From NCBI GenBank assembly GCA_964187785.1, contig OZ076409.1, positions 24,988,001-25,052,000 on the forward strand: a stretch of 64,000 bases of DNA. The letters are read 5' to 3'. This DNA comes from Amphiscolops sp. MND2022. Lineage: Eukaryota. Shown piece after piece: positions 2,629 to 25,736 of the stretch (the first letter of the stretch is position 1; the number at the start of each line of letters is the position of its first letter). The notes beneath the pieces are model-generated. The model did not search any database and had not been told where the DNA came from. It worked only from the letters and a program-made list of their open reading frames with translations. A program made the translations under genes and the position numbers.

Positions 2629-2727
2629 AGTAGTGGGGTGCAATATGCCGTATGATTTGAACGGGTCGGGTCATAACCGTATCTTAAAACATGGGGACCC
2701 GGCTCAAATTTACAGGTATCGGGTCAT
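2629..2727 (+). repeat. Polinton left terminal inverted repeat (99 bp)
   Basis: Reverse complement of 25637..25736 with one 1-bp indel and about 2 substitutions; starts with the AGTAGT microrepeat typical of protein-primed origins. Confidence 0.95.
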
Positions 2728-2899
2728 TACGAAAATATTTTGGTTGGTGGTGCTCAAACCCCCGACATCCGGGGCCGCAGTCAGATGGCCTACCACTGGG
2801 CCATGGGGAGCTCAAAGAGCTGCAATATTACTGTACTATGAAGCGTTCTGAGTTGGTTGCGACGCATTCACCTATAGAGGTCAATTTTTAGTGTGAGAC

Positions 2900-3262
2900 A
2901 TGAAACATTGCATGAGACAAAATCATCATGGTCATTATCATCAGAAAATGAATCAAAGACAGTTGCTTGTTCGATTTTCTATTGTTTTTGTAACGTTCAT
3001 TATAATTGCCTTGATGTTATTTTACACCGGTACATTATTGCTACCATCGAGCCACACAGACGATTATGAACATGGCTATTACCATGCAGTTGAATATTTT
3101 TCATCACCTACTCACAACGGAACCACATGCGCAAAAGACTCCGAAGGATACTGTCAGAATGGAGGAATATGTTTCATAGTTGAAGACGTAGGAGTTATAG
3201 CTTGCCAATGTCCTGATCCTTACGGTGGTAAACGTTGTGAAAAATACCTATGGTACCATTAG
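2900..3262 (+). CDS. Polinton cargo: EGF/neuregulin-like growth factor with an N-terminal hydrophobic anchor
   Basis: Hydrophobic segment LLVRFSIVFVTFIIIALMLFYTGTLLL, then C-x7-C-x5-C-x10-C-x-C-x8-C with CQNGGIC and YxGxRC (CAKDSEGYCQNGGICFIVEDVGVIACQCPDPYGGKRCE). Confidence 0.88.
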   Translation: MKHCMRQNHHGHYHQKMNQRQLLVRFSIVFVTFIIIALMLFYTGTLLLPSSHTDDYEHGYYHAVEYFSSPTHNGTTCAKDSEGYCQNGGICFIVEDVGVIACQCPDPYGGKRCEKYLWYH

Positions 3263-3714
3263 ATTCATTTTCGTCAATCACATCACGAGAAACGGTCGAC
3301 GCTATGCATGGTAGAAGAATGCAAATAAATTGTTCAATCGATGACATTAGATACTTGGAATCAAAGGCATTAGCTTGTCGAAAAGTATACACTAGAGATC
3401 GTAGCATTCGATTTCGGAATTATGTCATGGGACTTTGCAGACAAATACAAAAACGAGGGATATTCGAACTGTTGGAAGACAAAATACAACTACCCCGATT
3501 CAACTGGCTATACAAAAACTCAAAAATTTATCGACTAGTGAAAATCATACAAGAAGCAACAAGATTGTTGGCTGTTCATCACGGTTTAATTCTGAAGGGT
3601 GTTGATTGTGAACGGAAACATCAGTACAGAACAATTGGTCCACTGAGAGCAGCTTGTCTAGCATTGCGGTACCGAATTCAATATTATGATGAATTCTGGT
3701 TGCTGGAATGCTGA
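3250..3714 (+). CDS. Polinton hypothetical protein (154 aa)
   Basis: ATG-initiated ORF overlapping the EGF gene end; same strand as the viral gene block; no recognised motif. Confidence 0.55.
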   Translation: MVPLDSFSSITSRETVDAMHGRRMQINCSIDDIRYLESKALACRKVYTRDRSIRFRNYVMGLCRQIQKRGIFELLEDKIQLPRFNWLYKNSKIYRLVKIIQEATRLLAVHHGLILKGVDCERKHQYRTIGPLRAACLALRYRIQYYDEFWLLEC

Positions 3715-4051
3715 ACGAATTCAGTAACACCAACCTTTAGGCATTGGATTGTAAATTCTCAGCCTTAAGGACAATTCTGTGGCAACGTGATTGGTTTATA
3801 CCATAAAAATCGCCTATTGGTTGATATCAATTCATTCCGAAAGCTTTACAGAGTTTCATCCAGAATCAGAACCGCGAGTTTTCAAGACGAGCAAAGTTTA
3901 TCGATTAGCTTGTCTTTTAAAAACAAACACCCAGAACCTCGGTAACCTCGATTCAAAAGCGTTACAATATTCATTTGCAGTAAAATTTGCTTCAACACAC
4001 TGTCCCGGAGCCAACAATGATAAAGTTGGATTACGTTGTCATCGACTTTGA
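3708..4051 (+). pseudogene. Disrupted Polinton ORF, probable paralog of 3250..3714
   Basis: ATG 3708, TAG 3738, frameshift near 3790-3800 into ORF 3791..4051; shares KxSKxYRL and LxxKxxAxR…RD with the upstream ORF. Confidence 0.4.
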
Positions 4052-4616
4052 AGGTTTCAAGCACAAAAACGAGCCATACCTGATAAAAGAAATATCAGTT
4101 TTTGGTCCTTCATATCAAGATACATTACTATTAAAGCCGCAGTGTCACATTGATCAAGTACCCGCCGAGAGAAGACGTACATACCTTTGGTGCAGCAAAC
4201 ATTTGCACGGTTTAGACTGGAACTCTGGAACTCACGACTACTCATTCATTCACCAATTCTTTACCAGTTTGAAAATCCGCTTTCCAAACGCAGTGTTCTA
4301 TGCAAAAGGCGAAGCCAAGTGCAACTACTTACGCAGTCATTTATTCAACACTGTCGACTTGGAATTAGTTGGTTGTCCAAAAGTATCCGAATTCGTCAAT
4401 TTCGAGAATACAATCTGTACTAACCATATCCACCCCGAATACTACTTCGATCACTGCTCAAAAAAGAAAGCTTACCTCTTCTATTGTTGGTTGTTAAATC
4501 AAATTAACAAAAATGGCTGTGTCATCATACAAAGCCCAAGTTCTCCAGCTACCTCTCTCACAGAATCTAACACTGACCATGCAAACAACTGCCCATCCGA
4601 TGGCAGTAGGAGATAA
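4017..4616 (+). CDS. Polinton DEDD/DnaQ-like 3'-5' exonuclease-family protein
   Basis: VVIDFEGF…YLIKEISV (ExoI-like), HGLDWNSG, FYAKGEAKC, DLELVGCP, C…H…HC; ATG 4017 preferred over the TTG at 3987. Confidence 0.7.
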   Translation: MIKLDYVVIDFEGFKHKNEPYLIKEISVFGPSYQDTLLLKPQCHIDQVPAERRRTYLWCSKHLHGLDWNSGTHDYSFIHQFFTSLKIRFPNAVFYAKGEAKCNYLRSHLFNTVDLELVGCPKVSEFVNFENTICTNHIHPEYYFDHCSKKKAYLFYCWLLNQINKNGCVIIQSPSSPATSLTESNTDHANNCPSDGSRR

Positions 4617-23040: not shown

Positions 23041-23860
23041 CAAAATCATCTAAGATTTGATATACACAAGCTTATACAGTGAATATGCAGTCTATCTTTT
23101 ATTATATAGTACCATACTCTAGGCCAAAACCGTCTAAGATTTGCTATACATGGACATATACAGGATATGCGAAATCTATCTGGCATTAAACACCAGCGTA
23201 CTACAAGCCAAAAACGCCTAAGTTTTGATGTACACAAGCATATATAGGGTATATGCAGTCTATGTTTCATTATACAGTAGCATACTACATGTCATATTAG
23301 TCTAAGATTGGTTCTACACAAGCATATATGGGATATATGCAGCCTATCTTTCATTATATAGTAGCATACTACATGTCAAATTAGTCTAAGATTGGTTCTA
23401 CACAAGCATATATGGGATATATGCAGCCTATCTTTCATTATATAGTAGCATACTACATGTCAAATTAGTCTAAGATTGGTTCTACACAAGCATATATGGG
23501 ATATATGCAGCCTATCTTTCATTATACAGTAGCATACCGTCAGTCAAAATTATCTAAGATTTGATGTACACAAGCATATATAGGGTATATGCAGTCTATG
23601 TTTCATTATACAGTAGCATACTACATGTCATATTAGTCTAAGATTGGTTCTACACAAGCATATATGGGATATATGCAGCCTATCTTTCATTATACAGTAG
23701 CATACTACATTTCAAATTAGTCTAAGATTGGTTCTATACAAGCATATATGGGATATATGCAGCCTATCTTTCATTATACAGTAGCATACCGTAAGCCAAA
23801 ACTATCTAAGATTTGATGTACACAAGCATATATAGGGTATATGCAGTCTATCTTCTGTAT
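23041..23860. repeat. Tandem array of about 10 x 84 bp inside the Polinton
   Basis: (T/C)CTAAG recurs at 23049, 23133, 23217, 23301, 23385, 23469, 23553, 23637, 23721, 23805. Confidence 0.92.
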
Positions 23861-24364
23861 ATAGTAAGCATGCAGGAAACGCGACGAAAAAAAATCAAAA
23901 AAGCTCCAGTCACACACATCAGTCTTCTGTCAGAGCCGGTATAAGAGCCCCGAGGATGACTCCAGTCTGAAGGTGATTCCGGACACACCACTAGGGTGAC
24001 CTTTTTACCTTTCGGCTTTTTTTTCTACGTACGTTGGAGCTGAAACTGAAAAGCAGTTATTGATGGAATGAATTGTGTAGAAAAAAAACTTTCTTTCGCA
24101 GCTATTCAATGATATCTGAGCAATTCACCGAATATTATCAGTAGCTTCGGCTATGAAAAGTGTTAGAAAATAGATGATTTTCTCCCCAACGTTTTCAATT
24201 GCAAATTTCCAAAACTCCATGAATATTGACACCTGTGAATACGAGTTGAAGTTTGTGTTCGCTGGCTATGGTAATCGTTACCCGTTGCTTTCCGACTTTC
24301 TGATGCATTCGGAAGTTTTTGAAAAAAAACAATACTTTCGCATTATTAAATTCAAAATGCATTT

Positions 24365-24871
24365 TTACTGTACAAAACGATTTGAATCTAAATCACATAA
24401 TGCTTTATGAACAGCTTGAATTAGATTTAACAAGAGTCTTGCGTTACCTTCTACTAGAACGAGGCAATCTTTGACTCCTACCAAACGAAGGATCTTTTTG
24501 ACGATAGGCGGACAGCAAACTCCGGAAGTAGGCCCGTGGAATCCAGTTCCTTCCGGTGCGGGTTTCAAGTGCACTCTAACACTTCCTCGTATCCCAATTA
24601 CATAGAACGGAATAGTATGAACATTCCTCAATTCCCACGATCCCAGCGCAATATGGAAACGCTGTCGATATGCTTTTCCAGTAGCGCACATGACGGCCCT
24701 CTCCTGTGTTTTCATTATTTTTTGGGCGAATCCAACATCGCCGCTCCCATCACCCACCATGACGACTGCACGCCAACGAATTCTTTGCCCTCTCTGTGTC
24801 TCCGATTTCATTGGTGTCAGTTTCAGCAAAATCTCTTGCATTTCTATCGAGCTGATTCTTTGGTTTCTCAT
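24365..24871 (-). CDS. Polinton cargo: divergent eukaryote-type ribosomal protein uS5 (40S S2) homolog
   Basis: LLKLTP…TQRGQRIRWRAVVMVGDGSGDVG, GSW…HTIP…VIG…GSVRVHLKPAPEGTG, KKILRLVGVKDC…G…LLN…A…A align colinearly with both uS5 domains of RPS2; intronless, intact, inside the TIRs. Confidence 0.9.
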   Translation of the reverse strand: MRNQRISSIEMQEILLKLTPMKSETQRGQRIRWRAVVMVGDGSGDVGFAQKIMKTQERAVMCATGKAYRQRFHIALGSWELRNVHTIPFYVIGIRGSVRVHLKPAPEGTGFHGPTSGVCCPPIVKKILRLVGVKDCLVLVEGNARLLLNLIQAVHKALCDLDSNRFVQ

Positions 24872-25636
24872 CCCATTGTTTGTTTATCATTTCTCATCAG
24901 ATGAATGCAAAATTATCAATATGAAACTTTAAAGTATGAGTGGAAAAAATTATTCAAAACTTGAAGGTATGAGTGAGCAAAAAGGATGATTCAAAACTTC
25001 TATTATTGAATGCAAAAATGCTTCAAAACAAGAGATGAGAAACACCAAGGAATCACCTCACTTGGGAAAACTGAGATGTACGAGAGAAAATTGAAAGAAG
25101 TCGGTAATCAAAGATGAGGAAATTGACTATCTATATTGATTTCTGGATTATATAGTTGCAAAACGGGCAAAGAAAACAGCTTTCCTCTGAAAACTTTATC
25201 AACAAGATGATCTCTACTTTTACCAAAAACATGGAAACAAAGGCGAAGAAATTTGTGAGAAATTGTTCGGATTAAACAAAGGCATGAAGCTTTGGTTGAC
25301 GCTCGCCCTGATTTCATTCTTTGCAAAACAAAGAACTTTGCAAACGAAAAACATCAAAAGAATCTCGTCACATATTTTCATTATTCAAAGCTACTCAAAA
25401 GCAAGGTGATGTGATGCAGGAGGGAGCAGTTTTACAATACGTCTGATTATCTCAGAAATTTAACAACAAACACCGACTTTTCAAGTGGTTTTCTAAAACA
25501 TTGTAAACAAATGAAAGCTGCCTACCTGTGACCAGACTGAAGACTTGTTTAGAGACGCCCTGTCTTATTTTACCAGGTTGAAACAAGATATCGAATATAA
25601 ACAAGTCCTGACAGGTTGAAACAATTCAAACTATTT

Positions 25637-25736
25637 ATGACCCGATACCAGTGAATTTGAGCCGGGTCCCCATGTTTTAAGATACGGTTATGACCCGGAC
25701 CCGTTCAAATCATACGGCATATTGCACCCCACTACT
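25637..25736 (-). repeat. Polinton right terminal inverted repeat (100 bp)
   Basis: Ends …CACCCCACTACT, followed by TSD CACGAT. Confidence 0.95.

Follow-up and report, generated by a model that had tools for sequence, protein, structure and literature searches.

Sequence evidence for an exchanged, selectively maintained uS5-derived cassette in Polintons of Amphiscolops sp. MND2022

Why should a gene derived from uS5 (RPS2), a core protein of the small ribosomal subunit, lie at one end of a virus-like transposon, and what could it do there? The question is raised by a 64,000-nucleotide stretch of the Amphiscolops sp. MND2022 assembly (contig OZ076409.1, positions 24,988,001 to 25,052,000), here called the window. 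The window holds a Polinton/Maverick (Table 1), recognised by (AGT)2-ended terminal inverted repeats (TIRs), a 6-bp target-site duplication (TSD), a protein-primed DNA polymerase (PolB) with a retroviral-like integrase, and an A32-like ATPase with an adenain-like protease. Pfam matches were obtained for ATPase, integrase, protease, PolB, EGF and the N- and C-terminal uS5 domains, those of ATPase, protease and the PolB fragments falling below the curated cut-offs.

Table 1. Positions of the Polinton features in the window.
Feature	Position	Strand	Remarks
Left TSD	2623..2628	.	CACGAT, 6 bp, identical to 25737-25742
Left TIR	2629..2742	+	AGTAGT end; 106/115 identical to right end
Membrane-anchored EGF-like protein	2900..3262	+	Pfam EGF; 26/26 copies; purifying selection
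Conserved orphan ORF	3250..3714	+	154 aa; 24/26 copies; dN<dS
DnaQ/DEDD-fold protein	4017..4616	+	Model pLDDT 70; weak lean to Maelstrom
Three small overlapping conserved ORFs	4513..5399	+	116, 89 and 124 aa; 26/26 copies
A32-like packaging ATPase	5396..6124	+	Pfam Pox_A32 E 8e-4, below cut-off
Conserved 206-aa ORF	6343..6963	+	Kept across copies
Retroviral-like integrase	6890..7873	+	Pfam rve E 7e-12, above cut-off
Putative minor capsid protein	7860..8717	+	Presumed, with position; conserved in 26 copies
Small basic pX-like ORF	8720..9079	+	Conserved across copies
Major capsid protein (putative)	9069..10388	+	235 relatives; named relative and position
Adenain-like protease	10385..16913	+	Pfam Peptidase_C5 E 5.5e-3, below cut-off; interrupted by LTR insertion
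Nested LTR element, foreign to the Polinton	10724..16812	+	6.1 kb; 855-bp LTRs 99.2% identical
Variable RVxF ORF	17139..17759	-	Invariant SILK-like and two V-x-F (RVxF-type) motifs
Protein-primed PolB	18281..22870	+	Pfam weak; motifs readable; broken in window copy
Predicted spliceosomal intron in PolB	19369..19507	+	139 nt, GT-AG
84-bp tandem array	23049..23854	.	9.6 copies; left edge of swapped cassette
uS5/RPS2-derived gene, allele class A	24365..24871	-	168 aa; both Pfam S5 domains; fold model
Right TIR	25627..25736	-	Pairs with left TIR
Right TSD	25737..25742	.	Exact match to left TSD

The first-pass annotation had described a complete Polinton of about 17 kb with both TIRs, an exact TSD and the core genes, an EGF-like and a DEDD gene on the left, and an 84-bp array and a uS5-like gene on the right. 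TIR alignment, the CACGAT repeat and the Pfam matches agree with this, as do the array and the fold of the DEDD model, and the element measures 17,014 bp once the nested LTR element is taken out. The word complete holds for length but not for intactness. The protease is split because the LTR element has inserted into it, and PolB is interrupted by two in-frame stops, one near 18317 and one at 20949, while its frame shifts twice, near 21120 and near 21330. The window copy is a full-length but decayed member of an abundant virus-like transposon clade, and not an intact Maverick, in which every core frame would be unbroken. Its ATPase has a Walker-B substitution that the 25 other copies lack.

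The nested element is flanked by a 5-bp TSD (GTATA), and its 1170-aa ORF gave no Pfam match; a protease frame of 142-144 aa is present in 20 of 26 copies. The major capsid protein (MCP) is a putative assignment made from position, presumed resemblance and the sole named protein among its 235 relatives, an 'F54H12.2-like' protein of the acoel Convolutriloba macropyga (57%); no Pfam family matched either capsid protein, and an IMG/VR scan with the MCP returned nothing. By its position, the ORF upstream of pX is what we take to be the minor capsid protein, and the pX label is likewise our assumption. In Polintons the MCP has a double and the minor capsid protein a single jelly roll. The 124-aa member of the three small ORFs has two hydrophobic segments, and a Pfam search of the trio found no match, as did an Rfam scan of window positions 1-28000.

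To place this copy in its family, 26 full-length copies were compared, all with a TSD (one with a mismatch). They fall on three backbones, between which the MCP is 67-71% identical. EGF-like and DEDD-fold genes at the left and a uS5-derived gene at the right, past the tandem array, occur in all 26, and gene order is identical in 16/16 divergent full-length copies. Among 40 sampled uS5-like loci, 37 lie downstream of PolB and convergent with it, the remaining three being derivatives of Polinton ends. The first-pass annotation had staked its reading on a family that carries the cargo; since the whole family carries both cargo genes, and purifying selection acts on them, the reading survives this check.

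The uS5-derived gene falls into at least 13 allele classes, a spread that is inflated because divergent uS5 scores guided the choice of the 40 loci and 16 elements; nine sisters chosen by left-end similarity hold, with the window copy, three classes. The comparisons demonstrate that uS5 cassettes are exchanged between elements and that the exchanges break at the end of the array, where copies carrying unlike alleles cease to be homologous. Copies e73 and e65 are 97.6% identical over 15 kb up to the array end and have uS5 alleles 33% identical. Within backbone II the MCP is 96-100% identical against 22-68% for uS5, and the window allele shares 71% identity with an allele on another backbone against 30-38% with those of its close relatives. 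In two of the 26 copies the left and right terminus types differ and the TSD is perfect, which would be at most an indirect pointer to virions or extrachromosomal linear genomes. Many arrays have 83-bp rather than 84-bp periods; the array was rejected as a coding repeat, its frames varying by array type and the window units containing stops. Variable ends, as annotated earlier, are found on the right, where the within-backbone median for the cassette is 34-37%, but not on the left, which is stable within a backbone (EGF 86-94%, DEDD 95-96%). The other variable part is a mid-element ORF with PP1-docking motifs that had been missed.

What has the protein kept of uS5? Identity to host RPS2 is 30-43%, and the two S5 domains together with the model (pLDDT 92.5, TM 0.82 to eukaryotic uS5) place it in the uS5 (RPS2) family. 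The features of a functional eukaryotic uS5, an RG-rich/FxxxFG N-terminal tail and a C-terminal extension, are gone: FxxxFG occurs in 0/30 variants with at most one RG, and the frames stop shortly past the last helix. Net core charge is positive in 30/30 variants, near-neutral (+1 to +4) in three of class C and several others; host K83 is retained at 0.94 and R98 at 0.87, K/R positions overall at just 0.31. Where dS can be estimated, dN/dS is about 0.1-0.3, dS being saturated in many pairs. Positive selection is not established because close pairs (dN/dS 0.3-1.3) have no power, and the divergent pairs discussed below argue firmly for maintenance by purifying selection. The FxxxFG tail is described in excerpts of PMC10216425 as the PDCD2/PRMT3 site, and a decoy role towards these proteins was dropped because the binding tail has been lost.

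The other cargo bears on the setting in which this protein would act. The EGF-like protein has a hydrophobic segment (residues 22-40) and a C-terminal six-cysteine EGF domain with neuregulin-1 and EGF, both ErbB ligands, as best PDB matches; domain and anchor are those of an ErbB ligand, and activation of an ErbB-type receptor is putative. Poxvirus growth factors and ErbB ligands share the six-cysteine domain; unlike in these, the anchor here precedes the EGF domain, with which the protein ends. From the cargo we infer possible mitogenic signalling by the EGF-like protein, translation mimicry and a viral lifestyle. The orphan ORF has no match in two backbone-III copies and none in Pfam. The DEDD-fold model is a DnaQ fold (rmsd 3.3-3.7 over ~136 residues), generic DEDDh nucleases leading with VIA (Z 9.3) and Maelstrom following at rank 20 (Z 8.1); Foldseek gives Maelstrom the first four ranks (best E 1.2e-3), and an atlas lead also names Maelstrom (0.86). 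This Maelstrom-like lean, new here, may be read from a weak match. Titles and abstract openings in searches for Polintons with epidermal growth factor, Polintons with Maelstrom, acoel Mavericks and invertebrate Polinton/Maverick accessory genes held no relevant report.

Invariant columns are kept in the variable mid-element ORF across 12 sequences at 25-57% identity, motif support being drawn from motif counts and shuffles. The strict RVxF pattern, in the form we take it to have, is found at the aligned site in 12/12, twice in 8/12 and once in the window copy, and this conserved motif predicts a PP1-docking protein, new here. An atlas cluster with PF10488 on 41% of its members (score 0.81) is a weak, sub-threshold lead; PF10488 (PP1c_bdg) itself was found in 0/12 at E<=5, which sets the ORF apart from GADD34, gamma34.5 and DP71L. 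The alignment matched no PDB sequence, and a complex predicted with a fish PP1-beta (94% identical to the second coding exon in the host) scored 0.03, which, alignments being unused and the partner fold uncertain, speaks neither for nor against docking. Viral PP1 recruiters (HSV gamma34.5, ASFV DP71L, TGEV protein 7) likewise have an RVxF-type motif in excerpts of PMC10807198, and the five residues of the short DP71L motif recur in one variant here; unlike them, the ORF has two motif modules with SILK-like elements and no Pfam PP1c_bdg match.

The uS5-derived gene has a fixed position, is under purifying selection and is exchanged in at least 13 classes; its protein, which retains the fold and has lost the eukaryotic tails, is likely to serve as a decoy against host translation or RNA-defence machinery. 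The full account, a broken member of a large Polinton clade with a selected, exchanged cassette whose free, RNA-binding product would compete with host uS5 or stand in as its decoy instead of serving as an ordinary ribosomal component, is offered tentatively. It would start from a single capture of spliced host RPS2 message: the ORFs read through the host intron site, and the uS5-derived genes form a single-origin branch (support 98/91) that unites long branches and could be artefactual. Expression might be early, from the right terminus, as with adenovirus E4. Through its retained basic residues the protein would bind pre-40S particles or structured RNA and, alongside the predicted PP1-docking and Maelstrom-like genes, shift translation or dampen RNA surveillance. 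Alleles could swap when linear genomes that replicate together cross over in the array, and old alleles could be kept because rare ones escape host defence.

A generic silencing suppressor that binds dsRNA or small RNAs, with no further link to the ribosome, is an unlikely alternative. It would suit the basic cores, the neighbour leaning to Maelstrom and the uS5 N-domain, which excerpts of PMC10216425 call dsRBD-like, but not the retention of the C-terminal uS5 domain alongside it. Viral structures compared with the uS5-like model gave none at E<=0.001, and no viral dsRNA-binding protein.

Replacement of uS5 in the host 40S, with specialised ribosomes favouring element mRNAs or relaxing start-codon fidelity, seems rather less likely again. 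The N and C domains are retained in 29 and 28 of 31 rows (host included), as are turn glycines, the PAPRG motif and key basic residues, including those we take to face rRNA, and 9/30 variants have the N-terminal helical subdomain motif. In excerpts of PMC10216425, moreover, uS5 lines the mRNA entry channel. Docking is hard to reconcile with the divergence from the host and a mutual identity of about 30%, against a dN/dS of 0.01 for the host RPS2 gene pair, and the chaperone-binding tail and C-terminal extension are lost and the hairpin tip remodelled. The same low probability attaches to the wider scheme of a 17-kb animal virus lineage that puts its own multi-allele 40S protein into host ribosomes while a PP1 recruiter and a growth-factor mimic retune translation, under balancing selection.

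More doubtful still is a role in superinfection exclusion, in which the cassette would set self against non-self, or make competing Polintons incompatible, and many old alleles would be preserved. Deep allele classes common to several backbones and swapped as a unit would fit; however, no second variable partner gene was found in the cassette, and the allele is independent of terminus type because e73, e65 and e87 have the same termini. A neutral passenger, a processed pseudogene amplified with the element, is scarcely credible: many genomic copies carry stops or frameshifts, but every divergent within-class pair has a dN well under its dS (p<1e-4), and the 13 classes preserve the fold and open frames.

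How does the element sit with known systems? Polintons/Mavericks, in excerpts of PMC8097293 and PMC8502044, likewise have AGTAGT termini, a 6-bp TSD, about 17 kb, PolB, integrase, ATPase, protease and capsid genes, accessory regions and modular exchange; unlike those described there, the core genes here are all on one strand. The accessories named in those excerpts (PLA2X, gasdermin, cupiennin, Oncoid, Bcl2, IAP) do not include the uS5-like, ErbB-ligand-like EGF and RVxF set. Ribosomal-protein genes are likewise found in mobile or viral genomes, such as eL40 of FloV-SA2, eS30 of FBR-MuSV and phage bS21/bL12 (excerpts of PMC11499249 and PMC6375957), the eL40 of a giant virus being termed the first eukaryotic-virus ribosomal protein in 2024 (PMC11499249). 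Those proteins, as the excerpts present them, are late-assembling and exchangeable, whereas the one here belongs to the core of the 40S, has diverged to 30-43% identity and occurs in many interchangeable alleles in a 17-kb genome. 'uS5' occurs 0 times in the main texts of these two papers, supplements aside. Titles and abstract openings mentioned no Polinton or eukaryotic virus with a uS5 gene, though adintovirus and Maverick supplements could list such genes, and a single-protein scan of JGI metagenomes returned an archaeal-type ribosomal operon only. A core small-subunit protein kept by selection clade-wide and exchanged like an antigenic cassette is a new kind of ribosomal-protein co-option, and its alleles form a natural series with which to probe the uS5 surfaces that count away from the ribosome. 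The conserved host-interaction set (ErbB-type ligand, RVxF, DEDD) bears on whether Polintons of animals go through an infectious phase, and points to genes for assay.

PolB itself has N-terminal C2H2 fingers, an endonuclease-VII-like insert and readable Exo I-III and Pol A-C motifs, as we take these to be defined. HNH-bearing pPolB2 Polintons likewise have an endonuclease insert in PolB (excerpts of PMC10748475). The segment at 19369-19507 was rejected as PolB damage, being GT-AG, intron-like and common to 10/10 backbone-I copies; its GTAAGT donor is present in all ten and missing in 16/16 others. Unlike the vertebrate Mavericks, intronless in excerpts of PMC8097293, one backbone here thus has a newly noted, predicted intron in PolB.

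The element at the left of the window is a Polinton, as identified by its termini, target site duplication (TSD) and core enzymes. Its terminal inverted repeats (TIRs) of ~110 bp are identical at 106/115 positions, and the TSD CACGAT lies at either side. On the forward strand an EGF-like gene is followed by an orphan ORF, a DEDD-fold ORF, three small ORFs, an ATPase, a 206-aa ORF and the integrase, and then by a putative minor capsid gene, a pX-like gene, the MCP, the protease and PolB. The reverse strand carries a 206-aa ORF ahead of PolB, and a uS5-like ORF beyond an 84-bp tandem array. 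The first-pass annotation had described the element as complete, which holds only for its length; the copy is decayed: the protease is interrupted by a 6.1-kb LTR element (LTRs 99.2% identical, 5-bp TSD), without which the element measures 17,014 bp, and PolB contains stops and frameshifts.

Window positions of the Polinton, its cargo and its surroundings
Feature	Position	Strand	Remark
GDT1-family cation antiporter ORF	1631-2179		immediately left of the Polinton; probably a host gene exon
Left flank	2425-2628
Polinton	2629-25736
EGF-like gene	2900-3262	+
DEDD ORF	4017-4616	+
RVxF ORF	17139-17759	-
PolB stops	near 18317; 20949	+
PolB frameshifts	near 21120; near 21330	+
End of tandem array	23854
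uS5-like gene	24365-24871	-	class A
Right flank	25940-26090
LTR element	39800-44800		strand opposite to the nested LTR element; related to it, 73-90% identical in pieces
104-bp satellite	55585-64000		at least 81 copies; continues past the window end

Searches of the 1.07-Gb host assembly with the uS5-like protein, Pfam S5 and the EGF protein gave 310, 347 and 679 candidates, which are not copy numbers; the best 150 were scored in each case. Nine sister copies were selected by left-end similarity, and 40 uS5-like loci for a wide range of divergent scores. In the latter sample 37/40 genes lay downstream of PolB and convergent with it. One of the other three is a 2.5-kb mini-element (L053:5910-8390) that has both TIRs and a perfect 6-bp TSD but retains no genes other than the EGF and uS5-like ones; the remaining two are a derivative resembling it and a tandem of right ends. 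At loci L055 and L084, right-end fragments bearing uS5-like genes are duplicated in tandem. All 16 loci extended to full length exhibit AGTAGT termini, 6-bp TSDs and the gene order of the window copy, EGF-like through uS5-like, bearing out the earlier claim of cargo at both ends.

Three backbones were distinguished among 26 copies (MCP identity 95-100% within, 65-73% between), the window copy belonging to backbone I. Frames were intact for MCP in 21 copies, ATPase and protease in 20 each, integrase and minor capsid in 17 each, and the main PolB part in 11. A GTAAGT...AG segment inside PolB, present in 10/10 backbone-I copies and 0/16 others, is predicted to be spliced. Among backbone-II and -III copies, the array period is 83-84 bp in two unrelated sequence types and 54/108 bp in backbone III, and an additional 62-64-bp array precedes PolB; the periods approximate whole helical turns.

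The two host RPS2 genes each have one intron near the 3' end (dN/dS 0.01). The element variants are 30-43% identical to them, with frames passing uninterrupted through the host intron site, and form 13 classes among 30 variants (threshold 50% core identity). The window protein was modeled with a uS5 fold (pLDDT 92.5; TM 0.82 to eukaryotic uS5) from an alignment containing a host row. In a tree of 37 element, 15 eukaryotic and 4 archaeal-type rows (ten short, broken or near-duplicate rows excluded), a single branch (98/91) separates the element rows from all others; it joins long branches, and the tree does not pinpoint the donor. Conservation is strongest at the turn glycines, three helix alanines, K83, R98, T154 and the PAPRG motif (host numbering), and the hairpin tip and RRGYWG loop are remodelled. 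Net core charge is basic in 30/30 variants (+1 to +13 vs +14), and the FxxxFG motif occurs in 0/30. Divergent within-class pairs had dN far below dS (dN/dS 0.10-0.32 where estimable, dS being saturated in many), which excludes neutral evolution; near-identical pairs (0.16-1.26) are uninformative.

The gene lies in a cassette between the array end and the right TIR, where no other conserved ORF was found. On backbone II, uS5-like alleles were 22-68% identical vs 96-100% for MCP (14 copies, chosen for divergence); on backbone I the median was 37% (copies chosen blind to uS5), and one backbone-II allele matches that of the window copy at 71% identity. Two near-identical full-length copies, e73 and e65, align at 97.6% in a single alignment from the left TIR through the array end, beyond which similarity is undetectable up to the terminus; their uS5-like alleles are 33% identical. 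Mismatched left and right terminus types with a perfect TSD, seen in 2/26 copies, are most simply explained by recombination preceding integration. Within backbones PolB is more variable (~80-88%) than the capsid module (~98%); identity falls from the RVxF ORF onward, suggestive of a second exchange point. Protein P0134 seems to combine parts of two allele classes and has a strand-helix unit in duplicate, which hints at recombination within the gene.

Since fold and basic residues are kept, the tail is lost and allelic spread is extreme, we tentatively favor a putative free decoy or competitor under conflict. The lost tail is, according to parts of PMC10216425 and 10.1101/559146, the chaperone and methylation site of eukaryotic uS5. 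That the protein is instead a generic RNA-silencing suppressor seems unlikely. A working ribosomal subunit is slightly less probable, the retained fold and basic residues, missing tail and allelic spread together fitting it worse than a decoy or competitor, and a role of the cassette as an incompatibility locus is a little less probable again.

Among the other cargo, the EGF domain has neuregulin-1 and EGF as best solved relatives, a hydrophobic segment N-terminal to it, and dN<dS. For the DEDD ORF the fold is that of DnaQ, leaning weakly to Maelstrom. The strongly variable RVxF ORF (25-57% identity) is under purifying selection, with invariant columns P-I-x-S-C, K-x-V-x-F and a second V-x-F. 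The strict RVxF pattern matched the first site in 12/12 sequences and occurred twice in 8/12. Shuffled ORFs contained two RVxF motifs plus a SILK-like one in 1/24,000, with a SILK pattern widened after inspection. The product is predicted from these motifs to bind PP1; docking to PP1 usually involves RVxF and SILK motifs, by which several viruses keep eIF2-alpha dephosphorylated (PMC10807198, in part).

Termini, TSD and core enzymes are common to the window element and published Polintons/Mavericks; its accessory set includes the uS5-like, EGF and RVxF genes. No mention of this set was found in main-text parts of PMC8502044, PMC10748475 and PMC8097293, nor in those of PMC11499249, PMC6375957 and PMC13598248. 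Listings from literature searches on Polinton/Maverick cargo, viral ribosomal proteins and acoels contained no report of it either.

When 1.84 billion representatives were searched with a uS5-like profile, 30 of the 148 new top matches listed were nearer to the element variants than to cellular uS5. Of four checked against the host genome, one was present at 99%; the others had best matches of 62%, 48% and 42% (150 of ~300 candidates scored each), and the family thus probably extends into other assemblies. Of the MCP relatives, the sole named one (57%) comes from the acoel Convolutriloba macropyga, and the host animal is accordingly probably an acoel; in another acoel, Mavericks account for 4.5% of the genome according to part of PMC6451197. 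Finally, the flanks of the window Polinton share short inverted similarities, and a palindromic non-autonomous element may therefore have been its insertion site.
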